DNA of 64,000 bases from Scyliorhinus canicula (Eukaryota). Made by a program: the position numbers and the translations under genes. A model generated the notes under the pieces. That model worked only from the letters and a program-made list of their open reading frames with translations, was not told where the DNA came from and made no database searches. The stretch is from NCBI RefSeq assembly GCF_902713615.1, contig NW_024055720.1, forward strand, positions 186,001 to 250,000, given 5' to 3'. Positions 18,141-49,939 of this stretch are shown here, in pieces; the stretch's first letter is position 1, and every line of letters begins with the position of its first letter.

Positions 18141-18873
18141 TATTTGTTGTATATATGTGAAATAAAAGTTGCAAAAATCCCAGAGGACAATAGGCTGCTC
18201 TCCCCTTTGACAGAGAGAGAGCTGACTGGGGGTAATTTAACCCGAGGGTCAGCACACCTCAGGCGAGGGGCCTGGTTGAGAAGGGGGGGGGCCTTCGTGA
18301 ATAAACTCAGCCAGTACGGGAGTTGAATCCTCACTGTTGGCCTCGCTCTGCATCACGAACCAGCCGTCCAGCCAACTGAGCTAACTGACCCCCTGATAAA
18401 TATGTAATAATTCCTTAAATATTAGGTATTCCCTGTACCAATTATTTTCCCCTCATACACTGATAGTTTTCTTCTGTGAGGACATCCAGATAAATTAAAC
18501 AAAGGAACCATGTAACCACCAGGGCCCATCTCCATGGCAACGTGGCTGTGCGGGGGGGGGGGGGTTCCAAACAGAAATGGAAACAAAATATTTCCACAAT
18601 TCCAAACACCCTTTCACTCTGAGATCCTTGTGCAATTTGAAGCCAGGTATCAGCGACAAGGCTCAAAGAGAATCAGCCCACTGGAGGCAAAGTGGTGAGA
18701 CCGGCCAGTCCAGCAGAAAGAAACCCTTCGACCATCCCCACTGACCACCTGTCAGAATGAACAAAATGCAGTCCTGGCTGTAGAGCAGAAACAATAACAG
18801 CAGAATCCAACCCCTGTAATCAATTGTGAAATTGTTGGTGTCACAGCAGGTGTGGTGCAACATGCAATCCCGT

Positions 18874-19659
18874 CTAACATTGAGATGTGAACGGTCTCTC
18901 CCCAGTGTGAACTCGCTGATGTCTCCGCAGGGTGGATAACTGAGTAAATCCTTTCCCACACTGAGAGCAGGTGAATGGCCTCTCCCCAGTGTGAACTCGC
19001 TGGTGTGTCTGCAGGTGAGTTAACTGACTGAATCCCTTCCCACACTGAGAGCAGGTGAAAGGCCTCTCCCCAGAGTGAACTCGCTGGTGTGTCTGCAGGG
19101 TGGATAACTGAGTAAATCCTTTCCCACACTTGGAGCAGGTGAATGGCCTCTCCCCAGTGTGAACTCGCTGGTGGCTCCGCAGGTGGGAAATGTGAGTAAA
19201 TCCTTTCCCACACTGAGAGCAGGTGAATGGCCTCTCCCCAGTATGAACTCGCTGATGTGTCTGCAGGTTGAATAAATTACTGAATCCCTTCCCACATTGA
19301 GAGCAGGTGAACGGTCTCTCCCCAGTGTGAACTCGCTGGTGTGACTGCAGGTTGGATAACTGAGTGAACCCCTTCCCACACTGGGAGCAGGTGAACACCC
19401 TCTCCCCAGTGTGAACTCGCTGATGCTTCCACAGGCCGGATGAATCACCGAATCCCTTCCCACACTGAGAGCAGGTGAATGGCCTCTCCCCGGTGTGAAC
19501 TCGCTGGTGTGTCTGCAGGCTGGATAACTGAGTGAATCCCTTCCCACACCGAGAGCAGGTGAACGGCCTCTCGCCAGTGTGACTGCGTATATGAATCTCC
19601 ACCTGAGATGGGGCTTGGAATCCCTTCCCACAGTCCTCACATTTCCACGGTTTCTCCAT
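18874..19659 (-). CDS. C2H2 zinc-finger protein, 261 aa, 9 tandem fingers
   Basis: Open ORF with nine fingers and TGERPF linkers. Degenerate finger-like sequence lies upstream (19680-19900), with a candidate acceptor ttttacag near 20020. Confidence 0.9.
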
Positions 19660-20719
19660 GTTTTGGGCCTCCTCGTGTCTCTCTAGACTGGATGATCAGT
19701 TGAAGCCTCATCCACACACACAACACGAGTACGGTCTTTACACGCTGTGAATAGTGTGATGTTTTTTTAGGCTGTGTAACTGGTTAAAGCTCTTTCCACA
19801 GTCAGTTCATTGGAACACTCTCACTCGGGTGTGTGTTGTGTGGGTCTCGGTGCTTTTCCAGTCACACTGATGTTTGAAATCTTTAGCTGACAGTTCCGGT
19901 AAACATTTCATTTCTTGATTCAAAGGCCGATGATATTCAGGTTCTAAGGAATCGAGTGACTATCAGGTCGAGACGTGTCTTTTGAGATTTCTGTCTGTAA
20001 TTCCTCCTTGTCTAATATCCTGTAAAAACAATTTACAAAATTCAACACTGTCAGTACAGGGTAGAAACAGACAATTCTAGTTTCTATGTCACATTTTTTT
20101 CTCTCTCTTATTCCCCGAAAGCTGCAAATTTCCATCCCACACACTCTCCCTCCATTCTCACTCTGCTGTATCTAATATTCACCCTCCCAATTCTCCTGAA
20201 GGTGCTGATTAATGTTGATTGACAGATCCAAACTCACAGCTTCCTGTCCAGGAGATCAGAACAAATATGAGCTGCAGTCAGCCATTCGGCCCATCAAACC
20301 TGAACCATTCAATGAGATCATTAGCCGATCTACCTCATCACCATTTTCCCACGCTAGCTTCATGTCCCTTGACCTCTTGAATATCTAGAAACCTATCAGT
20401 CTGTGGCTTGAAAATACTCGATGACTGAAGCTCTAGAATCCTCGGAGGTAGAGAATTCCAAACCTTCACCACATCCTCGAATAAAGAAATCCCATCTCAT
20501 CTCAGCTTTCTCTCCATTTACCTGCCAGTTCCCCATAACCCTCCACAACCTCAATCAGAAATCTGTCTGTGGCTGTGGGGTGGGGGGGGGGGGGGGGTGT
20601 CAGGCATGTGATATGGGTGGGGGAGTAGCTGCCTTACCACAGGTTCTGGTGCCACTAAATTATAATCTGACAGTCATCCTGATTGCCTGGCACTCATCTA
20701 CCTAATCCTTGCATTAATA

Positions 20720-34282: not shown

Positions 34283-34465
34283 AGACTGTTCTTTCCCTTT
34301 GAGAGCTGACTGTGGTGATTTAACCTGAGGGTCACCACACATCAGGCCAGGGGCAAGGTTGAGAATGGAGATCTTTATGAATAACCTCAGCCGGTGCAGC
34401 GATTGAACCCGCGCTGTTGGGATCGCTCTTCGTCACGAACCAGCCGTCCAGCTAACTGAGCTGTG
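34283..34465 (-). mobile_element. tRNA-derived SINE family C whose head runs into the 29-bp array
   Basis: Minus strand AGCTCAGTTAGCTGGACGGCTGGTTCGTGACG...GCGGGTTCAATC (A- and B-box-like). Homologous to 6325-6490 and 18200-18390. Confidence 0.75.
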
Positions 34466-35114
34466 TACGTCACAATCCAGCTAACTGAGCTGTGTACGTC
34501 ACAATCCAGCAAACTGAGCTGTGTACGTCACAATCGAGCTAACTGAGCTGTGTACGTCACAATCGAGCTAACTGAGCTGTGTACGTCACAATCCACCTAA
34601 CTGAGCTGTGTACGTCACAATCCAGCTAACTGAGCTGTGTACGTCACAATCGAGCTAACTGAGCTGTGTACGTCACAATCCACCTAACTGAGCTGTATAC
34701 GTCACAATCCAGCTAACTGAGCTGCGTACGTCACAATCCAGCTAACTGAGCTGTGTACGTCACAATCCAGCTAACTGAGCTGTGTACGTCACAATCCAGC
34801 TAACTGAGCTGTGTACGTCACAATCCAGCTAACTGAGCTGCGTACGTCACAATCCAGCTAACTGAGCTGTGTACGTCACAATCCAGCTAACTGATCTGTG
34901 TACGTCACAATCCAGCGAACTGAGCTGCGTACGTCACAAACCAGCTGACTGTGATGTCTACGTCACAATACAGCTCACTGAGCTGGGTATGTCACAATCC
35001 AGCTAACTGAGCTGTGTACGTCACAATCCAGCTAACTGAGCCGAGTAGGTCATAATCCAGCTAATTGAGCTGTGTACGTCACAATCCAGCTAACTGAGCT
35101 GTGTACGTCACAAT
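34448..35114. repeat. 29-bp tandem array, about 23 units, AGCT-rich
   Basis: Unit ccagctaactgagctgtgtacgtcacaat, with the 29-bp period checked at 34448 and 34477. High homogeneity, no spacers. Confidence 0.95.
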
Positions 35115-35499
35115 CAATTTGTCTTACAAAAGTTGTGTCTTCATTTGTATCTTTGCAGTTTTGGGAAATTCCCTTTGTTCAAACTGACTGATGCCCCCTC
35201 CTCCCTCCATCTCACTAACCCCACTCCCCAAACCAGAGAATTGTGGCTTTGCTTCAAAAACACCTTCTGAATGTACCTTTATATAATTACAATAAAACTC
35301 TACATTTGAGTAATTGCAACATTCACTAATTTTAGGACCATGCACATTGACAGCAGGAGGAGGCCATTCAATCCGTGGAGTCTCCTCCCCCATTCAGTAA
35401 GAGCCTGCCCTGTGCTGATTGTGGTGTTAACTCCATATTCCGCCTGTCACTGAGACCGGGCTGTCTGCGATCCACCCAACCCCCGCCCCGCGCTCTCTG

Positions 35500-36385
35500 A
35501 GCGTTCCCCCATCTCTCTGCGGTTCCCGCTGGATTGCTGCACCTTCCTCCTGGTCCCTTCACTATCGTTTAGCTCTCTGCTCTTTTCCACGGCTCTCTGC
35601 GCTTTCCTCCGCATCTCTGCACTTTCGGCACTGAATTTTCTTCCTGCTCTTTGTGCTTTGCCCATGTGTGCTGCACTTTCCCCAGTTCTTTCGACTTTTC
35701 CCGGTTCCTGGCACTTTCCCCGGTCTTTTTGAACATTTCGCCAGCACTGTGCGCTTTACCCCGATTCTTATGGCTTATCGCCCACTCTATGAACTTTCGT
35801 CCGGCTCTCCGCACTTGCGCCAGCTCTCTGCCCCTTCCCCCGGCTCTCTGCCCCTTCTCCAGGCTCTCTGCACTTTCCCCGGCTCTCTGCGCCTTCCCCC
35901 GGCTCTCCGCACTTTCCTCCGGCTCTCGGCTCCTTCCCCCGGCGCTCTGCTCCTTCCCCCGGCTCTCTGCTCCTTCCCCCGGCTCTCCGCACTTTCCTCC
36001 GGCTCTCTGGGCCTTCCCCCGGCGCTCTGCTCCTTCCCCCGGCTCTCTGCTCCTTCCTCCGGCTCTCTGCTCCTTCCCCCGGCTCTCTGCAGCCTTCCCC
36101 CGGCTCTCTATCTTTCCCCGACTCTCTGCTCCTTCTCCCGACTCTCTGCTCCTTCCCTCGGCTCTCTGCTCCTTCTCCCGGCTCTCCGCACTTTCCCCCG
36201 GCTCTCCGCACTTTCCGCCGGCTCTCTGCTCCTTCCCCCGGCTCTCTGCACTTTCACCCGGCTCTCCGCACTTTCCCCCGGCTCTCGGTTCCTTCCCCCG
36301 GCTCTCCGCACTTTCCCCGGCTCTCGGCTCCTTCCCCCGGCTCTCGGCTCCTTCCCCCGGCTCTCCGCTCCTTCCCCCGGCTCTC
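35500..36385. repeat. ~19-20-bp C/T-rich minisatellite (G/A-rich on the Ig sense strand)
   Basis: Core 35790-36385 is built from ccccggctctctgctcctt and ccccggctctccgcacttt variants. Confidence 0.9.
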
Positions 36386-36499
36386 GCCACCTCCGTGTTC
36401 TGAGCCACATTCGGGGGCCAATGGACATCAGTTTCGCTCCAGTTCTCTATTCCTCACTCGCTGCAGACGCTCCCTTGCCGATTTCCTGAGCATCAGTGA

Positions 36500-40127: not shown

Positions 40128-41076
40128 TGTAGCCATGCTGGCCACGCAAAATGGACACTGAGCCAAACTAAAATAGAAGACTGCTGGGAAACAGACAGTT
40201 TAGCCAGAACAGCAGTCTGCAAAGAGCAGTTTGCATTCTGCAGCAGCAGAAACCAGTTTGGGCTCAGGTGAAAAGACCTTAGCTAGGTGCAAATGGCAAA
40301 ACACTTTGCATGCTAATGAGGCCATCAGACTTGAACACCCACACAATAGATACATTTGGTTCTGAATGGACACATTCTAATCAAGACCCAGACATCGAGG
40401 CACCAGAAACTTCCAAACAAAAGGACATAAGAAACGCCCCCTCCATCACGGAGACCCCCTCGCATTGGGGAATTAATCCAGTATCGATAAGAAATTGATC
40501 CAATAGGTAGAGCCCGCCCGAGAAGAGGGAAGGACAATGGAACCCCTATAAAAGATAGGGACCTCGTGTTGTCCGGTCTGTTAAACCCGTGCTCCGGCTC
40601 TGACTGACATCTTGCATCCTGACTCCAGCCGTTGAGCACCAGCCGCCGAAACCGTAAGTTCAAAGCTCGCTACACGATCCAAGCCCACTAGACTCCCAAG
40701 TACCAGAACGCTTGCTGAAGGCTGCAGTGCCAGACCAGGACGAAGGCCTCGTTCTCTGACCTTGCCTGTTCCTGTTAGATAAGTATTCTGTTTGCTTAAG
40801 TTTAGTTATAGCTTAGTCTCTTAGTGTGTGCATGAGTATTTATTATAACTGTATAATAAATATTGATCGTTTGAACTTTACTAATCGGTGTATCGTCTTT
40901 ATTACTTTGAACTTGACCTTGGAATACTTGTGACGTTGCCTATACGGCAACTGGCGACTCCAGAGCTAAATAATTACATAGAACAGAGCCTAGCAGTGTT
41001 AAGCACACGTCGAACTCGGAGGCGTGTTAATACACTCCAATAAACGCGTTTTACGCCCATAGTAAAACGTGCAACA
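40128..41076 (+). repeat. 5' LTR
   Basis: TG...CA termini, TATA-like cctataaaa at about 40545, AATAAA at 40855 and 41039. I found three substitutions versus the 3' LTR by eye (40411, 40664, 40674). Confidence 0.97.
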
Positions 41077-41081
41077 TTTAG

Positions 41082-41100
41082 TGGCGACATCCGCCGGGAC
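41082..41100 (+). other. Primer-binding-site-like sequence TGGCGACATCCGCCGGGAC
   Basis: Starts 5 nt after the 5' LTR with TGG, complementary to tRNA CCA. I could not assign the cognate tRNA with confidence. Confidence 0.6.
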
Positions 41101-41395
41101 CCTGTTGTAAGTGGAAACACCACAGTGTCCAGGACCCTGAAATTTGAATTAGAACTCCAAATTGCAGAGAAAGAAAGAGATCACAAGTATTCAAGGTGTT
41201 CAAAATAATAAGCGAAATTCGGAAGTGTGTTTAGTGCATGCGTACTAACAGGGCTGTAAGGTAAAACTGAAAGCTTTTTGTTGCGACAAACTTTCGGTAG
41301 TTTTGTGATCGGAAAATAGCGTAAGCCGTACCCTTTTTACGAAACACCACCCCAACAACCCCCTGTTCCAAATTATAAAAAGAGAGTCAGAGGAA

Positions 41396-43144
41396 ATGGC
41401 CATGCAGGCAATGGAACGTCTGATGGATCCAGCAAAGTTTGTGGTCGCAGCGACCAGCAGCAGTAGCAGGGTAGGCCAGTGTCCCACGTGGGAGCTGGAA
41501 CTCCGCAAATATTTACAAGGAAAGGGATGGCCCCTTTGGAAAGAGTTTTGTGCAAATGAGGAGACAGGTCCCGGGAGTATAGGTCATACTTGGTGGGAGA
41601 ACCTCTCTCAAATACACAAAAAGAGTTTAGGTAAAGCACGCAAGCCGATGGCAATTGTGTCCTGCTTGGCACAGTTGCGAGGCGCAGAGGAGGTCATCAG
41701 GACGCTCCGGGCAGATTTAGAGGAAAGGAACCGAATGAGTAAGGTCGATGTCAGGGACGTCGAGAAAGAAAACCTGGAATTAAAAGGGAAGTTGGCAGAG
41801 AAGGATAGAGAGGTGGATGATGCCAAGAGGGCTCACCAGTCTTGTCTAGCTCATCTGAGCAGTTCCCAGACCCAGTATGAGAAAGCCTATCAGGACGTGC
41901 AACGTGCCGTTCTGATAAGACAGGAATCGGAAAAGCAGGTGGAGGCATTGCAGAGGCAATGTTCCGATCTCAAAGCAGCTTTGAGAGCACTCCATGCTGC
42001 AACAACCGAACAAAGACAAAGCACAGTTGACCACGCGAAATGCAGGAAACAGATTGCGGAACTGCAATCTCTGCTTTCGGTGCAGAATGGCTTCCAAAGC
42101 ACCTTTGGAGCTCAGTTAGATGGGGAAAATGCCCCAGATTGGCAGGAATTAAGCGAGACAGCGCAGCGTTATGTTCAGGGAACATGTGCGCCCGCAGCTC
42201 AGCAGAAACGACAGGCACCCCAACCCCCCACAGCTCAGATCATAACCGCACCCATGAATCCCGTAACCACACAGAGGAAAGCCGAATCAGAAGGCGCCCC
42301 AGACATAACTTACACCACCCCTTTAACAGTAACCCAGCTAAGGGACGCTTGTGAAAAGATCACTCCGTTCCTCCCCACCGCAGACCCCCACCAGTTCTTC
42401 GCTAAAGTAAAACAGCAGGCTACCATGTACGGCCTGGATGAGAGAGAGCAGGTTAAGCTCACCGTGCTGAGCTTAGACCAGAGCGTAGTAGCAGCCCTCC
42501 CCGACCCACAAAACGTGGCAGGAGGCAGCCTAGAGGAGATACACACTGCCATTTTAGATGCCATCGGGTACAATAGAGGTGACCCCGTAGAAGGATTGAA
42601 TAAGTGCAGGCAGAAGAGATCCGAACACCCCACAGCATTCGCAGGAAGGCTGTGGATTCATTTCAGCGCAGTTTTCGGACAGCTAGATAGAGCGCATTTA
42701 ACCCGCGAAAACATGGTTAAGTGGACGCGCACAATTATCTCACACGCAACAGAAGCAGGACAGAGCGCTTGCAACAGTTACGACCCCTCAGAAGAGGCCC
42801 ATAACGAGAAATGGGTCCTGAAAAGATTGTCCCGCGCTTGGGAGCAATCGCTTCAGGCAAAAGGAAAGGTTAGATCCCCAGAAGAGGCTCAGGCTGCTGC
42901 AGATATCCAAGCAGTCAGAGAGCACCAGAAGCCCGCATGGGTAAATGACGGCAAGAGCAGCCCACAACAGAAAGGACAGGAATGCTATAACTGTGGACAG
43001 TTAGGGCATTGGGCTAAAGAGTGCCAAGCACCCCAGCGATCTCAGAGAGGCCAGCAGACAGGCACTCTGAACCGCAACAAAGCAAAACCCATCCACAATG
43101 TAGCAGTACAGTCAGGACCCACCAATGTGGACGAGACGAACTGA
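41396..43144 (+). CDS. gag: Gag, 582 aa, with a long coiled coil and one CCHC zinc knuckle
   Basis: Open ORF after the leader. CYNCGQLGHWAKEC at 42983-43024. No N-terminal Gly2. Ends in TGA. Confidence 0.9.
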   Translation: MAMQAMERLMDPAKFVVAATSSSSRVGQCPTWELELRKYLQGKGWPLWKEFCANEETGPGSIGHTWWENLSQIHKKSLGKARKPMAIVSCLAQLRGAEEVIRTLRADLEERNRMSKVDVRDVEKENLELKGKLAEKDREVDDAKRAHQSCLAHLSSSQTQYEKAYQDVQRAVLIRQESEKQVEALQRQCSDLKAALRALHAATTEQRQSTVDHAKCRKQIAELQSLLSVQNGFQSTFGAQLDGENAPDWQELSETAQRYVQGTCAPAAQQKRQAPQPPTAQIITAPMNPVTTQRKAESEGAPDITYTTPLTVTQLRDACEKITPFLPTADPHQFFAKVKQQATMYGLDEREQVKLTVLSLDQSVVAALPDPQNVAGGSLEEIHTAILDAIGYNRGDPVEGLNKCRQKRSEHPTAFAGRLWIHFSAVFGQLDRAHLTRENMVKWTRTIISHATEAGQSACNSYDPSEEAHNEKWVLKRLSRAWEQSLQAKGKVRSPEEAQAAADIQAVREHQKPAWVNDGKSSPQQKGQECYNCGQLGHWAKECQAPQRSQRGQQTGTLNRNKAKPIHNVAVQSGPTNVDETN

Positions 43145-46100
43145 CGGTGTTCGGGCTCCCCCACTTGGGTCTGTGACACACTATGGGACTCATCAGGGAG
43201 GCCCGTAGTCACGGCAAAAGTCAAAGGGAAGCCCATAGAGTTACTGTGGGACACAGGAGGATCCCGCACCACCATTAACTCCACAACCACGGCACACTCA
43301 GACACGTGGCCGACCACCTCCACCATCACACTTAGCGGGTTCACCGGACACTCGCAGCAGGGACATATCACAGCACCCGTAGCGATCCAGCTAGGGAACA
43401 TTAGCACAAGGCACCCCGTAGTTCTAGTAAATCTTCCCCGGACAGCAGAGCACATCCTGGGGATAGATTTTATGAACGCTCACAGCTTGTCGTTCGACCC
43501 AGTGAACCAGTGTGTCTGGCGAATGGCGAGATCAGACAGAGCCCCAGCCACCCTCACAGTAGGAGACTACGCTAATCGGATTAGCGCAGTGGGAGAGTAC
43601 TCATTCGACCTGACTACACTCCACACCGACAGACAAATTAAGGCCCTACTAAACAAACACAGGACAGCATTTGCAAGTCACCGTCATGACTGTGGCAGAA
43701 TGACTGGACAAGTTCATGTTACCGGACAGGACCCCCGACCGCAAAAGCAATATAGATTTCCCCTCGAGGCAGAGGTGGAAATAGAAAAAGTTATAGGTAG
43801 CTTGTTGGACCAAGGTGTACTGAGAACGGTAGCCTCCACCAACAATGCCCCTATTTGGCCAGTGAGGAAGCCCGATGGATCATGGCGTCTGACCATTGAT
43901 TATCGGGAACTCAATAAAGTAACCCCCGCAGTAGCCCCAACGGTAGCTACTAGTCCCGAGACCATGCTCAAGCAGGGTCTCAACGCCAAGTACTTCACGG
44001 TATTGGACATCAGTAATGGATTCTGGTCAATACCATTGGCAAAAGCGTGCCAATACAAATTCGCATTCACTTTTAAAACACAGCAGTACACGTGGACATG
44101 CCTCCCACAAGGATTCCACAATTCACCCTCCATTTTCCACCGACAGCTGGCAAGTGGATTAGAAAAATTTTCCCGACCCGAATGTCTGGTACAGTATGTA
44201 GACGACCTACTACTGCAGACAGACACAAAGGCAGAGCACATTTCGCTTCTGGCCGAACTCCTGGAACTCTTAACTGAAATTGGCTGTAAAGTTAACCCGA
44301 AAAAGGCCCAAATATTCGAAAGTAAAGTGATGTATTTGGGATCAGTCATCACGCACGGCAAACGCGAGATCGAATTCAAAAGAATTGATTCGATTGTCAA
44401 ATTGCCCCTTCCCCAGAATGTTTCAGCCCTCCGGTCGTTTTTAGGACTGGTTGGCTATTGTCGGAACCACATCGACGGATTCGCGACAAAAGCCGCCCCA
44501 CTTTCAGACCTCCTTAAGAAAGGAGCCCCCTGGGAATGGCTTCCGCAGCATACAGGCGCTGTGGAAGAGTTGAAACGAGCCCTTAGTGCAGCACCCGCGC
44601 TGCTAGTCCCCGACCAACTTTCACCGTACGCAATCGAGGTAGCTAGCACAGATCTAACCCTCTCGGCCGTGTTGCTTCAAGAACGGCACGAGCAGCTAAG
44701 ACCAGTGGCTTATGCCTCCCGACTGTTAGACCCGGTAGAACAAGGATTTTCAGCCTGTGAGAGGCACCTCCTTGCTGTCTTCTGGGCAGTGCAGTATTTC
44801 TCATACATCACCGGACTAAACCCCATCACCATTCTAACCGAACACACACCCACACAGCTACTACTAGACGGTCGACTGAAGGGCGGTTCAGTTAGCCAGA
44901 TTAGGGCAGCTAGGTGGACCCTACTTTTACAAGGACGGGACATTACTGTAAAACGGACACGCACCCACACATACTTAGCAGACAACCTCCAATACCCCGG
45001 ACAACCCCATGACTGTGAAATTGTAGCTCCCCTGCATAACACAGGACCCTTTTTAGCAAAAACACCCCCCAGGAAGATAGGGAACCCGAAACAAAGCCCC
45101 CAGCCCACAGACACGTGTGGACCCTTGAGGATTTATGTAGACGGTTCCTCCACAGTTTTAAATGGTGAGCGTATCACAGGATGCGGCATCTATGTAGAGG
45201 ACGCGCAGGGGCGCGCTCTCGAAGAGATAGCTCTTAAGTTACCAGGTCACTTAGGCGCGCAGGCAGCAGAGCTAGCAGCCATAGCGTACATAGTGGACCA
45301 CCCCGATTCTTTCCCCAGCCCAGCAGACATATATTCAGACAGCTTATATGTATGCAATAGCCTAACAGATTTTCTGCCCCTGTGGAGGACACGAGGTTTT
45401 GTCTCCGCAGACGGAAAACCCCTTCCATCAGCCCCCTTACTCCAGCATATCCTAGAGAAAGCGAAGGACAGGACCTTCGGCATAATAAAAGTAAGAAGCC
45501 ACCATAGGTCATCACCCCCTGGGAATGTAAAGGCCGACGCGTTGGCTAAGGCAGGTTCCAGGAGAGGACACTTATGGACCCCCCCTGCTAGCGCACCAGC
45601 TAGCGCCCCTGTGAGCGCAGTCCAAGTCTCACAGACTGATATTAAAGATCTCGTGGCAGCACAGAAACAGGACGGAGACCTCAGGGAGGTTTTCAAGGGA
45701 AACTTTGTGCCTGCTTACGAGCACTTTAAACACGCACTGACCACACATGAGGGTGTGATCATTAAGGACCAACTTTATGTGGTCCCACAGCAGGACAGGA
45801 ATCAGATGATTGCCTTGTTCCATGACGGACACGGGCATCAGGGAATTGATGCAACAACGAGGCACCTCAGGCAACTCTGTTGGTGGCCTAATCTCAGGAA
45901 TGATGTAACGCACTACATAGAGAATTGCCTGATTTGTGCTCAGAATAACCCGGAGAGGTATTCTAAGAAAGCACAACTTCGGCATACTCGCCCAGTTAAC
46001 GGCCCTTGGACAAACCTCCAGATCGACTTTATAGGTCCATTGCCCCCTTGTAGGAATGGCTATAAATACGTTCTGGTGGTGATAGATACCTTTACCAAGT

Positions 46101-47371
46101 GGGTAGAGGCATTTCCCTCACGAACAAATACAGCAAAGACAGCTGCAAAGATCCTGACCCACCACATCTTCACGAGATGGGGTTTACCCCGAAGTATCGA
46201 TTCGGACCAGGGATCTCACTTTACAGGACGGGTCATGAGGAACGTCCTGACAATATTCGGAATCAAACAGAACTTCCACATTGCGTATCATCCACAGTCC
46301 AGCGGGATTGTGGAGCGCATGAATCGGACCCTAAAAACTACCCTCAGGAAAATGGTCCAAGAGAATAATTCCACATGGGATTCAGTGCTCCCATTTGCAC
46401 TTATGTTCATAAGGAACACTGTCTCCACATCGACAGGATACACACCACACACACTCATGACCGGACGCCCTATGAAAGGTACAGAATTCCTTTTAGGACT
46501 GGACATGACAAGCCCCGAATTGACGGCCCTCACACATGAAAAGGCAGTTAAAGATCTAGTTGAGACTGTGAGGTCTGCACAGCTCGCAGCCGCAGTCCAG
46601 CTAGGGAAACGCCGACAGCAACGTACTGCCTGTTTCAATAAGACCGTACACACCACAGAATTCCAGGTTGGGCAACAGGTAATGTTATCTGTTTATAACC
46701 CCAGCAGTTTTTTGGCTCCAAAATATTCCGGTCCCTACTCAATTTCGGACAAAATTAGCCCCTCCGTTTACAGGATAAAGTATCCTAATGGGAAGACCGC
46801 GTGGTTCCATATAAACCAGTTAAAGGCATATGGAACACAGGCCAACCATGCTCACCATGTCCTGCTGGATGCAGCAGAACACTTCACCCCGCCCACCAGA
46901 GACACTTTTCCACCATCCCCCTCACAGACCAGTTCATCAACGGACTCGCCAACGACTCCGCCCACAGACCACTACAGACCACGCCCCGACACGCCCACAA
47001 GCTGCCACAGCAGAGACAGCAGGACTGACACTGACTCTGAAGACAGCGACACCACACAGCCATACAGCCCACACTGCACCAACTACGACCCCGACTCCAG
47101 TGACCCCATGGAAGTCACCTACCTCAAATATCCAGAACCACCACCCGACCCCGACTACCCCGACAACACACTCGACGCTACACAATGGCACAGGGACAAT
47201 TCCTACAGACTTGTCCGCAATGACGAGAGTGACCCCCGGTCACACAATTCCAAAATAGCATGCCTGATCCACACAAGGGTGTGGGATCCGGGAGAGCAGG
47301 ACGACACGGTGTCTGACTCCCGACACGGCAACCCCTTTGTGACCCTGTTCACAGAGGCAGAATCAAAGTGA
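43145..47371 (+). CDS. pol: Pol (protease, RT, degenerate RNase H tether, active RNase H, integrase, C-terminal extension), in frame with gag
   Basis: No stop from 43145 to 47368. Protease LLWDTGGS. RT LDISNGFW, LPQGFHNSP and YVDD (44195-44206). Tether PVAYASRLL. RNase H YVDGS/AELAA/YSDS/NVKADALAK. Integrase HHCC, D-D-E core and GPY. Confidence 0.95.
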   Translation, partial: RCSGSPTWVCDTLWDSSGRPVVTAKVKGKPIELLWDTGGSRTTINSTTTAHSDTWPTTSTITLSGFTGHSQQGHITAPVAIQLGNISTRHPVVLVNLPRTAEHILGIDFMNAHSLSFDPVNQCVWRMARSDRAPATLTVGDYANRISAVGEYSFDLTTLHTDRQIKALLNKHRTAFASHRHDCGRMTGQVHVTGQDPRPQKQYRFPLEAEVEIEKVIGSLLDQGVLRTVASTNNAPIWPVRKPDGSWRLTIDYRELNKVTPAVAPTVATSPETMLKQGLNAKYFTVLDISNGFWSIPLAKACQYKFAFTFKTQQYTWTCLPQGFHNSPSIFHRQLASGLEKFSRPECLVQYVDDLLLQTDTKAEHISLLAELLELLTEIGCKVNPKKAQIFESKVMYLGSVITHGKREIEFKRIDSIVKLPLPQNVSALRSFLGLVGYCRNHIDGFATKAAPLSDLLKKGAPWEWLPQHTGAVEELKRALSAAPALLVPDQLSPYAIEVASTDLTLSAVLLQERHEQLRPVAYASRLLDPVEQGFSACERHLLAVFWAVQYFSYITGLNPITILTEHTPTQLLLDGRLKGGSVSQIRAARWTLLLQGRDITVKRTRTHTYLADNLQYPGQPHDCEIVAPLHNTGPFLAKTPPRKIGNPKQSPQPTDTCGPLRIYVDGSSTVLNGERITGCGIYVEDAQGRALEEIALKLPGHLGAQAAELAAIAYIVDHPDSFPSPADIYSDSLYVCNSLTDFLPLWRTRGFVSADGKPLPSAPLLQHILEKAKDRTFGIIKVRSHHRSSPPGNVKADALAKAGSRRGHLWTPPASAPASAPVSAVQVSQTDIKDLVAAQKQDGDLREVFKGNFVPAYEHFKHALTTHEGVIIKDQLYVVPQQDRNQMIALFHDGHGHQGIDATTRHLRQLCWWPNLRNDVTHYIENCLICAQNNPERYSKKAQLRHTRPVNGPWTNLQIDFIGPLPPCRNGYKYVLVVIDTFTKWVEAFPSRTNTAKTAAKILTHHIFTRWGLPRSIDSDQGSHFTGRVMRNVLTIFGIKQNFHIAYHPQSSGIVERMNRTLKTTLRKMVQENNSTWDSVLPFALMFIRNTVSTSTGYTPHTLMTGRPMKGTEFLLGLDMTSPELTALTHEKAVKDLVETVRSAQLAAAVQLGKRRQQRTACFNKTVHTTEFQVGQQVMLSVYNPSSFLAPKYSGPYSISDKISPSVYRIKYPNGKTAWFHINQLKAYGTQANHAHHVLLDAAEHFTPPTRDTFPPSPSQTSSSTDSPTTPPTDHYRPRPDTPTSCHSRDSRTDTDSEDSDTTQPYSPHCTNYDPDSSDPMEVTYLKYPEPPPDPDYPDNTLDATQWHRDNSYRLVRNDESDPRSHNSKIACLIHTRVWDPGEQDDTVSDSRHGNPFVTLFTEAESK

Positions 47372-48307
47372 GGTGTCCAGATGATGTAAGATAGGAATCG
47401 TTTGAGGGAAACGATGTCCTTTCTGATGGAACCTGCACGTATGTTTGTCTTCGTTTCATGTTTGTTTGTTTTCAGGAATGTAAATTGTTCAGCTGGAGGA
47501 TGGACATCTTCTTTTCAGCTGAAAAGATTGTGACCACCTCACATACACGTTAGCTTGTCTGCCGAAACTTTTGAGAACTTCGGTTTGATTGGAGATCTTT
47601 TCCAAAGTTGTAAGGCCACACGCCAAATAGCTTGTCCGCAGATATCTCTGAGAACTTCAGTGATGTCCTCAGTTGGAGCATCTTGGCTCCCTTGGTTTTT
47701 TAGGTGCCCCTCTATTCGGCGAAATAGAGGCTGCAAGTCATGGTAAACACATTCGTACCCGTTTTTTCCAGGTTACTCAGGCAGTGGACAAACGGCACTG
47801 AGGACCCGCCCTGTCTGAGAACCAACCCTTGGTCAGCCAAGCTCGGGTATGGCACAGCACGCCCTACCCGGGGATCCCATCCAACTCATACCCGTCGCGG
47901 CCCATACGCAACTCATTCGGATGTTTGTTTCCAAGTTTGTTTTCATTTTACGTTAGGTAGCCCTTCGGCCACCATCCCACATGCTATTTACATCCGGGAA
48001 CATTCGGATGGTAAATCAGCAAAGCCTGCGAGACGGCTCGCAGAAGGAAGGATTGTTAGGTGTATGCTGGTCTTTAAATTCGCTTTTTGAAAAAAAAAAT
48101 GAGGGGAGTCACAGGGTGTGACTTAGCCAGTCATTTTAAAGGGTCAATTGGGATTTGAAAGACAGATGCACTAACAAGTAAAGGTCTTAAACTGTGTATT
48201 GACAGATACTGTGCTTGATCCCAAAGGTTTCAAAGGACGAGACAGAGGTCGAAGCCAGGATTGTCAATACCGGAGGAAGAAGGAAGAGAAAGAAGAAGAA
48301 CAGCAAA

Positions 48308-48661
48308 ATGATGGAAGCCCACTTATTACTGTTTAATGTCATATGTATATGTGTGGAAACAAGACACGTTTCCCCCACAACCCCCACCGTAAATGTTAGT
48401 ACAACAAACCCCCAGTGCTCAGCTCTGATCAGCGAGGTTCAGACCTGGTGTACTAAATTCATGACGTGGTACTCCATGTCCTACATAATCGAATCACTGT
48501 TGGTGATCGCGATCCTCATCGTCCTAGTGCAGACCCTCAGGTTGAGGAAATGGAAGAGGAGAGCCTCTCGTTCCAGCACCTCACCCATCTATAGAGTGCA
48601 ATCCCCCATCTTCGGATTCCACCAAACCCCTCAACCCCTCACTGATTACAACACTCTGTAA
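48308..48661 (+). CDS. Small predicted single-pass membrane protein (117 aa) at the env position
   Basis: ATG in good Kozak context, N-terminal hydrophobic stretch, NVS sequon, Cys37 and Cys48, TM YIIESLLVIAILIVLVQTL, then RLRKWKRR. Ends about 330 bp before the 3' LTR. Confidence 0.6.
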   Translation: MMEAHLLLFNVICICVETRHVSPTTPTVNVSTTNPQCSALISEVQTWCTKFMTWYSMSYIIESLLVIAILIVLVQTLRLRKWKRRASRSSTSPIYRVQSPIFGFHQTPQPLTDYNTL

Positions 48662-48990
48662 ATAAAATTCAGCCATGTATTATATTGTTCCATACTCGAC
48701 TGCCGAGTTGGGAAGTGTGATGTTGTGGTGTGAATGGTTAAGGTTTAGAGTGATTAAATGTTTAAGTTAAGGTTAAGGTTAATAGTGATAGGTAGAGGTT
48801 CCCAGTTGTAGTAATGCATGTCCTTTTGACATAGGGCCAAGTAGAAATGTTAGTTAAAATTTTTTTTCTCTTCTTCCCATAGTTTAGAACAGAGTAGAAC
48901 AGGAACTGGCAAGAGGTCAGAACACAAGGAAGGCAAAGTACATAGGTGATCCTTCACAATAGTATGATTGTGAGGATCACAAGGAGGGAA

Positions 48991-49939
48991 TGTAGCCATG
49001 CTGGCCACGCAAAATGGACACTGAGCCAAACTAAAATAGAAGACTGCTGGGAAACAGACAGTTTAGCCAGAACAGCAGTCTGCAAAGAGCAGTTTGCATT
49101 CTGCAGCAGCAGAAACCAGTTTGGGCTCAGGTGAAAAGACCTTAGCTAGGTGCAAATGGCAAAACACTTTGCATGCTAATGAGGCCATCAGACTTGAACA
49201 CCCACACAATAGATACATTTGGTTCTGAATGGACACATTCTAATCAAGACCCAGACATCGAGGCACCAGAAACCTCCAAACAAAAGGACATAAGAAACGC
49301 CCCCTCCATCACGGAGACCCCCTCGCATTGGGGAATTAATCCAGTATCGATAAGAAATTGATCCAATAGGTAGAGCCCGCCCGAGAAGAGGGAAGGACAA
49401 TGGAACCCCTATAAAAGATAGGGACCTCGTGTTGTCCGGTCTGTTAAACCCGTGCTCCGGCTCTGACTGACATCTTGCATCCTGACTCCAGCCGTTGAGC
49501 ACCAGCCGCCGAAACCGTAAGTTCAACGCTCGCTACGCGATCCAAGCCCACTAGACTCCCAAGTACCAGAACGCTTGCTGAAGGCTGCAGTGCCAGACCA
49601 GGACGAAGGCCTCGTTCTCTGACCTTGCCTGTTCCTGTTAGATAAGTATTCTGTTTGCTTAAGTTTAGTTATAGCTTAGTCTCTTAGTGTGTGCATGAGT
49701 ATTTATTATAACTGTATAATAAATATTGATCGTTTGAACTTTACTAATCGGTGTATCGTCTTTATTACTTTGAACTTGACCTTGGAATACTTGTGACGTT
49801 GCCTATACGGCAACTGGCGACTCCAGAGCTAAATAATTACATAGAACAGAGCCTAGCAGTGTTAAGCACACGTCGAACTCGGAGGCGTGTTAATACACTC
49901 CAATAAACGCGTTTTACGCCCATAGTAAAACGTGCAACA
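48991..49939 (+). repeat. 3' LTR, preceded by polypurine tract AAGGAGGGAA (48981-48990)
   Basis: 949 bp, nearly identical to the 5' LTR. Confidence 0.97.

Follow-up and report, generated by a model that had tools for sequence, protein, structure and literature searches.

A small predicted membrane glycoprotein under purifying selection in the env position of an env-less retrovirus-like family of the catshark Scyliorhinus canicula

Introduction

Env-less endogenous retroviruses are regarded as purely intracellular, and genome screens often demand env before an element is called infectious (PMC10435555, PMC4422223). The window analysed in this study, 64,000 nucleotides of a Scyliorhinus canicula contig, contains a complete LTR element at 40128-49939 in which gag and pol are open and env is absent. 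An ORF of 117 aa lies where env would be expected. The locus therefore raises the question of whether this ORF is a gene and what its product does for an element of this kind. The initial annotation had likened it to the FAST fusogens of reoviruses and proposed direct cell-to-cell transfer or, alternatively, an accessory or immunomodulatory role.

Results

Structure of the element

The features of the element are collected in Table 1. It is flanked on both sides by the 4-nt target-site duplication TGCC. The primer binding site is complementary to a tRNA-Arg(TCT) gene of the shark genome (G000) at the gene's 3' end, with a perfect match in 2 of 16 other element copies; the primer of snakehead retrovirus (SnRV) is tRNA-Arg as well. 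A second TGGCGACTC motif, resembling the start of the primer binding site, was seen in U5 at 40950-40965 and at loci L193-L208, 65-130 nt 5' of the true site and in many subfamilies. The N-terminal half of Gag is, as judged by eye, coiled-coil-like. Pfam recognised in pol a protease, a reverse transcriptase (RT), an RNase-H-like tether, a second RNase H and an integrase, which is the retroviral layout. The integrase bears an extra tail of about 170 aa, rich in Pro, Thr, Ser and Asp and with a conserved block at its end (46850-47371), that is present in the oldest subfamily too. Since gag and pol are separated by an in-frame TGA (43142-43144), pro-pol is likely made via stop readthrough. This TGA is the lone one and is followed by CGG (43139-43150); TGA with CGG is a readthrough-type context, and most readthrough retroviruses use TAG.

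Upstream of the element, two minisatellite arrays with units of 29 nt (34331-35239) and 20 nt (35493-36470) are followed by long TG/AG-rich simple repeats. Two arrays of an 84-nt repeat, a period typical of C2H2 zinc-finger genes, lie in opposite orientation at 2061-2785 and 18803-19774.

Table 1. Position of the features of the element and of its small ORF in the window
Feature	Position	Strand	Remarks
5' LTR	40128..41076	+	949 nt, TG...CA; 3 differences vs 3' LTR
Candidate major splice donor GTAAGT, R region	40654..40659	+	motif
PBS for tRNA-Arg(TCT)	41082..41100	+	one extra base in window copy
gag	41396..43144	+	no Gly2; one CCHC knuckle; TGA end in frame with pol
pro-pol	43145..47371	+	protease, RT, tether, RNase H, integrase, Pro/Thr-rich tail; 1408 codons
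Candidate acceptor A1	47455..47475	+	T-rich tract + CAG
Candidate acceptor A2	47688..47703	+	pyrimidine tract + TAG
Branch-point-like TTGAC + AG (48204-5) + candidate acceptor A3 (48226)	48199..48226	+	
GAA-rich purine tract before ATG	48272..48300	+	candidate enhancer
Small predicted type I membrane glycoprotein ORF, 117 aa	48308..48661	+	
Predicted signal peptide, aa 1-18	48308..48361	+	hydropathy + motif pattern
N-glycosylation sequon N29-x-S	48392..48400	+	
Aromatic membrane-proximal segment W47-C48-x-x-F51-x-x-W54-Y55-S-x-S-Y59	48446..48484	+	
Predicted TM helix, aa 60-76 (about 59-76)	48485..48535	+	invariant Glu62
Juxtamembrane basic cluster RLRKWKRR, aa 78-85	48539..48562	+	
Cytoplasmic motif Y95...S-P-I-F-x-F-H-Q-x-P-x-P110	48590..48637	+	
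Polypurine tract	48981..48990	+	
3' LTR	48991..49939	+	949 nt

Placement of pol

The nearest relatives of pol were frog, coelacanth and turtle elements annotated as 'NYNRIN-like' (P0001-P0009), with RTs 46-58% identical to that of the window, and no homologue of the small ORF from these elements occurred among the protein matches. The nearest labelled RT was that of SnRV (48% over 263 aa), and the loki-like rows of carp and eel were 39-41% identical. The integrase is 38-41% identical to loki and 29% to SnRV, and the tether is closer to loki's than to SnRV's. An RT tree contains a 100/100 group of 16 rows with the window, SnRV and the loki-like rows, rooted at the midpoint with no outgroup. For the CGIN1-related feature of the integrase, the window grouped with the loki-like rows at 95/95 in a tree to which CGIN1 itself is external. 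Both trees were midpoint-rooted without an outgroup and drew on 36 and 17 of 120 listed matches; the SnRV row (P0012) was identified by a motif, and the carp and eel rows were labelled via RT motifs, given in the supplement of PMC7947760. A scan of IMG/VR with the integrase returned no relative. On these sequence comparisons, it is best described as an unplaced retrovirus allied to SnRV and lokiretroviruses.

Like SnRV and the SnRV-like (Huo) ERVs (PMC12193657, PMC2717909, PMC6001957), the element has a Gag without Gly2, one zinc knuckle, gag and pol in frame and several 3' acceptors, which are candidates here. SnRV differs in its full env and in a distant integrase with another C-terminal domain. 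Lokiretroviruses, unlike the shark copies examined, carry a paramyxovirus-F-like env, and the study that describes them found none in 6 chondrichthyan genomes (PMC7947760). For catsharks, an ERV consensus has been reported in which no Env domain was detected (PMC10699275).

The family lacks env and keeps the small ORF

Between the pol stop (47371) and the 3' LTR (48991), the longest ATG-initiated ORFs are of 117 and 116 aa, in agreement with the initial annotation that no env-sized ORF is found there. A protein search of the shark genome with the small ORF yielded at least 150 copies: of 5325 first-look candidates, 150 were scored, and all of these are 99-100% identical and free of stops. To select copies independently of the ORF, they were anchored on the integrase with a frog query, and 5 kb downstream were taken for 40 of 150 matches. 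An ORF homologue is present in 36 of these 40. In 34 of the 36, no sense frame between integrase and ORF exceeds 179 aa, and the longest ones are mostly pol tail; the two others have frames of 263 and 387 aa, both with insertions. Three of the four copies devoid of the ORF leave the element match before reaching it, and one is deleted there. No env-sized frame was found at the ORF site in any of the 40.

Additionally, 16 longer stretches (9.9 kb each), in which the ORF is present, were selected across subfamilies. Pol is retained in 15 of them, 56-94% identical to the pol of the window; LTR pairs are 93.7-100% alike in 11; and no further long sense frame was detected except one low-complexity repeat. 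The family has therefore long copied itself without env. A search of the genome for PF00523 (paramyxovirus-F-like env), at reduced sensitivity, gave no match. With a coelacanth RT as query, chosen to bring up sister families that carry env, at least 150 rows were obtained at 62-63% identity, with the frame lengths of this shark family.

Taken together, these data support an element that is env-less as a family, with a small ORF in the position of env. A full env in related copies, which would have made the ORF a deletion remnant, was seen neither in the 40 integrase-anchored copies nor in the 16 longer stretches. The one-off deletion remnant is ruled out by this layout, by the ORF being present across subfamilies and by the selection described below.

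The ORF evolves under purifying selection

Forty-one uninterrupted natural ORFs, in five similarity groups, were used to measure selection. The between-group dN/dS is 0.25 for the ORF overall, 0.13 for residues 46-111, 0.13 for the TM and 0.17 for the tail, and about 0.5 for the signal peptide and stalk (stalk 0.50), with between-group dS values of 1-1.7 that are close to saturation in places. For the whole ORF, 8 pairs gave dN/dS values of 0.12-0.34, all with bootstrap intervals below 0.6. Indel counts were left out of account as circular, the copies having been picked for an uninterrupted ORF. In a paired test against the window, nine loci were tried and one was dropped for a stop in the integrase; in the remaining eight the integrase has a dN/dS of 0.04-0.08 and the ORF 0.17-0.31, and the dS of the ORF is about that of the integrase in the same loci. 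The shifted frames of the ORF in these loci gave 0.67-1.05 and 1.3-3.8. Purifying selection thus acts on the ORF as it does on pol, and the check on sibling copies called for at the outset came out in favour of a selected gene.

The neighbouring 116-aa ORF (47740-48090) was rejected as a gene, since stops and frameshifts break it across subfamilies, and it serves as a built-in control for the 117-aa ORF. The non-coding DNA at 47700-48100 is about 75-83% conserved across subfamilies despite the broken frames and falls within the deepest part of the RNA coverage; it is a candidate for a structured RNA element acting in export or packaging.

Features of the predicted protein

Sixty-six loci had a match to the ORF, 63 of them with a readable core, and motif counts are given out of these 63 where possible. 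A further set of 26 ORFs was selected with a filter that demanded some of the motifs, so that its counts of 100% are partly circular; the 63-copy counts are less filtered.

The features first described for the ORF are all present in the window copy: a hydrophobic N-terminus, a Thr/Pro stretch, N29-V-S, Cys37 and Cys48, a single TM, RLRKWKRR and a terminal YNTL. Two more cysteines, Cys13 and Cys15, are found in the leader. Across 41 ORFs, the leader exhibits a hydrophobic core in 38 and a small-x-small cleavage-like motif in 39 (pattern-based). The predicted signal peptide, which had been pointed out as a difference from FAST proteins, is then a family trait. The sequon is kept in 56 of 63 copies, with N and S constant and V, D, F or A between them. 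The predicted mature ectodomain is variable in sequence and nearly fixed in length: of 39 ORFs, 34 have 41 aa and none falls outside 40-43 aa.

The aromatic segment shows the lowest pN of the protein (0.155) and is only modestly amphipathic (moment up to 0.45). In an alignment of 31 ORFs, the invariant residues are N29, W47, C48, F51, W54, E62, L65 and A68, followed on the cytoplasmic side by K81, W82, R84, R85, Y95, P100, F102, Q106, P108 and P110.

Other features proved private to certain lineages. Cys48 is found in 62 of 63 copies and Cys37 in 18, so the p10-like cystine loop proposed between them is not a family trait. An older subfamily has a second ectodomain Cys at another spacing in 16 of the 17 loci scored, out of 20, of which two did not fit the pattern and one had been taken from the opposite strand; the spacings of 10 and 14 residues belong to two separate lineages, and the remaining subfamilies have Cys48 alone. 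The YNTL terminus, read at first as a YxxL sorting motif, occurs in 2 of 26 ORFs, the other subfamilies ending about four codons sooner, and no conserved YxxPhi or classic sorting motif was found family-wide. Neither a Gly2 myristoylation site nor MGxxxS/T occurs in any of the 26 ORFs. A Cys close to the C-terminus of the TM is present in 21 of 26 and missing in the window copy.

From these features, the product is predicted to be a type I glycoprotein with a Pro/Thr stalk, one glycan site, an aromatic segment, a TM, a basic cluster and a cytoplasmic tail.

Splice signals and transcription

An acceptor had been proposed at the AG that ends at 48205. This AG exists and is kept in 34 of 38 copies, immediately 3' of a branch-point-like motif, but the better candidate is A3, 21 nt further 3', where [ACT]AG is found in 38 of 41 uninterrupted ORFs (TAG in 20, CAG in 16, AAG in the subfamily of the window). 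The stretch from A3 to the start codon is purine-rich, and free of ATG in 37 of 38 copies. The GAA-rich tract described as enhancer-like is present, and the purine run is conserved in 38 copies, the 40 nt preceding the ATG being 72-100% purine (mean 87%). Three RefSeq models pass from unrelated upstream exons into element sequence at A3; in two of them the upstream parts are LINE-like, and these models may be predictions without read support.

The donor first assigned to the leader at 41107 is a GTAAGT in the window but in just 1 of 11 copies overall. Splicing from 41107 to 48206, for which no RNA junction was listed either, is accordingly not supported. A GTAAGT in the R region lies 367-431 nt 5' of the primer binding site in 10 of 11 copies. 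This site is upstream of the poly(A) signal AATAAA (40857), and loose poly(A) ends were seen at 40878 in RNA run X23; a splice donor in R before the poly(A) signal is the layout of foamy viruses and HIV.

The RNA data consisted of two raw-read runs, chosen by species label, and two contig sets; run X24 is oligo-dT, and the reads derive from many element copies. Among indexed RNA runs, none was listed as carrying the element. The X24 reads are nearly all in the orientation that marks sense RNA, and 48 of them caught the internal-to-LTR junction. They cover gag-pol at a depth of 1-10 and the part from 47528 onward at 35-66; depth climbs from about 15 to 52 across acceptor A1, with a second step near acceptor A2 (47703) that is confounded by a variable repeat just 5' of it. 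No depth step was observed at 48226, and no donor-acceptor junction was listed in the two raw-read runs and two contig sets. The region at 47515-47680 is an imperfect tandem duplication with a unit of about 87-89 nt, whose copy number differs among element copies. The ORF region is thus transcribed in the sense direction, and from the splice signals we infer that an mRNA spliced from the R-region donor would encode the small protein.

Homologues, fold and possible origin

A single-sequence word search with the small ORF found no homologue, and a profile word search matched P0122 alone. phmmer against 1.84 billion representatives gave 4 matches, all Scyliorhinus RefSeq models (49-64% identical), which show that homologues exist in a second catshark species. 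One S. torazame RefSeq model (P0124) is a HEPACAM2-like isoform with its last exon from the element; its C-terminus corresponds to the TM and basic cluster of the small ORF, a possible exonisation by host genes. All matches in the ESM Atlas were below 0.9 and serve as leads only, and a PDB profile search gave a single match at E 1.3. AlphaFold modelled one long helix (residues 35-90, pTM 0.34), for which Foldseek returned nothing under E 2 in BFVD. A homotrimer prediction, in which the alignment was unused, scored 0.05 and is evidence neither way. Nothing in Pfam, PDB, Atlas or BFVD linked the protein to a fusogen by sequence, profile or fold, and as regards FAST proteins there was likewise no match in Pfam, PDB or BFVD. 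As far as these searches reach, the small protein seems to belong to no known family.

As to its origin, the ORF might be a captured piece of a host membrane gene, namely a TMEM156-like C-terminal module, rather than an env shrunken to its signal peptide, membrane-proximal region, TM and tail. Pfam TMEM156 (PF15106) is matched by 26 of 31 ORF members at E <= 0.1 (0.0006 in the best case), each time over the TM region, and the 6 matches of this profile in the genome are all copies of the small ORF. However, no score reaches the curated cut-off of 27 bits (the highest is 22.9, and the window protein gets 13.5), thousands of copies amount to many draws, and a TM with basic composition scores easily. 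Moreover, no host TMEM156 gene was found in G000, and TMEM156 is absent among the Atlas rows shown. Capture is an improbable origin in our estimate, and the resemblance is a weak lead on origin only. The env stump fits the position and the splicing but is likewise without sequence support.

Comparison with FAST proteins and sORF2

FAST proteins are of 95-198 aa, and their TM is a reverse signal anchor, with neither signal peptide nor glycosylation (PMC3952855). The shark ORF resembles them in size, single TM, N-out topology, an ectodomain near 40 aa and a polybasic motif (PMC3952855, PMC12945298). With predicted cleavage, its ectodomain of 40-43 aa is at the upper limit of the FAST range (about 20-40 aa). 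In two sub-lineages only, a two-Cys loop of 10 or 14 residues recalls p10 and p14. Unlike FAST proteins (PMC3952855), it has a predicted signal peptide and a sequon, two of the features most widely kept in the family, and it presents neither a Gly2 myristate site nor a family-wide cystine noose. Considering this leader, the sequon, the missing Gly2 and the patchy cystine loop, we do not regard the shark ORF as a member of the FAST family, to which the initial annotation had likened it.

That annotation had also mentioned FAST-like small ORFs in env-less insect LTR elements, and these are indeed published as sORF2 (10.1101/2025.03.14.642691). The sORF2 of env-less MDG1 elements sits in somatic protrusions that carry capsids to the oocyte, although the authors could not prove that it is needed for fusion; in Lepidoptera its gene follows pol in 7 of 22 cases, and the N-myristoylation motif is missing in 2 of 6 Drosophila cases (10.1101/2025.03.14.642691). 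The shark ORF has in common with sORF2 (Voichek et al.) an env-less LTR element, a short single-TM protein, a short ectodomain (about 30 aa in sORF2 and FAST proteins, 36 aa in p14; 10.1101/2025.03.14.642691, PMC3952855) and a juxtamembrane basic patch. sORF2 differs in belonging to arthropod Metaviridae, in its 63-107 aa, in being usually N-myristoylated and in its unspliced RNA, and the shark ORF in its retroviral pol (tether and RNase H), predicted signal peptide, sequon and splice-acceptor signals. With no MGxxxS/T and a pol that is retroviral and not of Metaviridae, it falls outside the definition of sORF2-like proteins. The survey behind that definition covered arthropod Metaviridae, nackednaviruses and avian picornaviruses with a myristoylation filter (10.1101/2025.03.14.642691), and so could not have found the shark protein.

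Discussion

The 117-aa ORF is real, selected and previously unannotated. Past selection and transcription, what it does for the element is inferred. Our leading but tentative reading, held at a little under even chances, is that the predicted surface glycoprotein of this env-less family acts much as sORF2 does, letting capsids pass out of one cell and into another in contact with it. An mRNA spliced from the R-region donor would yield the small protein, and cleavage of its signal peptide would leave about 41 glycosylated residues outside. The basic cluster would direct it to the plasma membrane, where the conserved cytoplasmic tail may bind either the actin machinery or Gag, itself devoid of a Gly2 myristoylation site. 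Perturbing the apposed membrane might then fall to the aromatic W-C-x-x-F-x-x-W-Y segment, in place of the myristate or cystine noose of FAST proteins. As the presumed benefit, the element would pass from somatic into germ cells.

Exit and entry at cell contacts may be the simplest reading of an ORF that occupies the env slot, with env-like expression signals, a fixed ectodomain length and an invariant aromatic segment, in a family that has no env. The persistence of this arrangement in 36 of the 40 integrase-anchored copies, none with an env-sized frame, and in the 16 longer stretches argues for it, as do the strong constraint on residues 46-111 and the agreement of ORF and integrase dS. The length of the ectodomain is held while its sequence varies, and the ectodomains of FAST proteins and sORF2 are also short and length-constrained. 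The second ectodomain Cys at two spacings in two lineages, the sense RNA, whose depth in X24 is several times higher 3' of pol than within gag-pol, and the precedent of sORF2 in MDG1 elements are consistent with the same reading. On the other hand, the signal peptide and the glycan site are missing from FAST proteins, and a glycosylated Pro/Thr stalk resembles a spacer or accessory glycoprotein more than a fusion peptide. Gly2 is absent, most lineages have no cystine loop, and the amphipathicity is modest. The RNA gave neither a splice junction nor a depth step at 48226, the protein has no sequence or fold link to fusogens, and the need of sORF2 itself for fusion is unproven. Finally, loss of env alone can reportedly explain a high copy number, a point attributed to Magiorkinis in 2012.

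A more far-reaching form of cell-to-cell transfer, which we consider rather doubtful, is that a vertebrate retrovirus lineage swapped env for a signal-peptide-bearing minimal fusogen of about 100 residues, a new class, and that its thousands of germ-line copies arose via direct cell-to-cell passage.

Alternatively, and at a similarly low probability, the protein would be an accessory glycoprotein that shields the element or the cell, for instance using its TM and tail to remove a host restriction or immune factor, while the element copies itself inside germ cells. Vpu and the E3 proteins of adenovirus remove host factors via TM helix and tail. The type I layout, the mucin-like stalk, the charge in the TM (invariant Glu62) and the Tyr-bearing tail would suit the rerouting of a membrane partner, and there is a weak Pfam likeness to KSHV K1 (E 0.08) and adenovirus E3A (E 0.25), with scores far below the cut-off in both cases. 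SnRV, the nearest labelled RT, has several small accessory ORFs on spliced RNAs (PMC12193657). Nevertheless, the ORF has no conserved YxxPhi or other classic sorting motif, the region-level dN/dS indicates strong purifying selection, with nothing in the conserved parts that suggests an arms race, and an element that never leaves its cell has less need of a surface protein.

Less probable still would be a capsid anchor without fusion, the tail recruiting a non-myristoylated Gag to the ER, endosome or plasma membrane for assembly or budding. In foamy viruses Env serves particle assembly and budding. A Gag without Gly2 and a cytoplasmic motif that is conserved like the TM, next to a relaxed stalk, are in line with such an anchor. 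It leaves unexplained, however, the invariant W/C/F/W segment, the sequon and the fixed length of the ectodomain, and SnRV Gag is not myristoylated either (PMC2717909), so the trait may predate the ORF. A neutral relic of a deleted env or a chance frame, which the commonness of short ORFs and the absence of an observed protein or splice junction might suggest, is refuted at the sequence level and has next to no probability left, given the low whole-ORF dN/dS with its bootstrap intervals in all 8 pairs, the lack of such a signal in the shifted frames and the broken 116-aa neighbour.

In the mostly open literature covered, we found no description of a comparable protein from a vertebrate retrovirus. 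An env-less family with a strongly selected predicted surface protein in the place of env challenges, for vertebrates, the rule that such elements are intracellular only. If capsids do move between cells, the strategy of sORF2 would extend from insect Metaviridae to Retroviridae, with a very small fusogen to dissect. Should the minimal fusogen be real, insect sORF2 would gain its first counterpart in Retroviridae, one that needs neither myristate nor cystine noose. If the protein is instead accessory, it would still found a new protein family, whose thousands of natural variants would point to a host partner in the shark.
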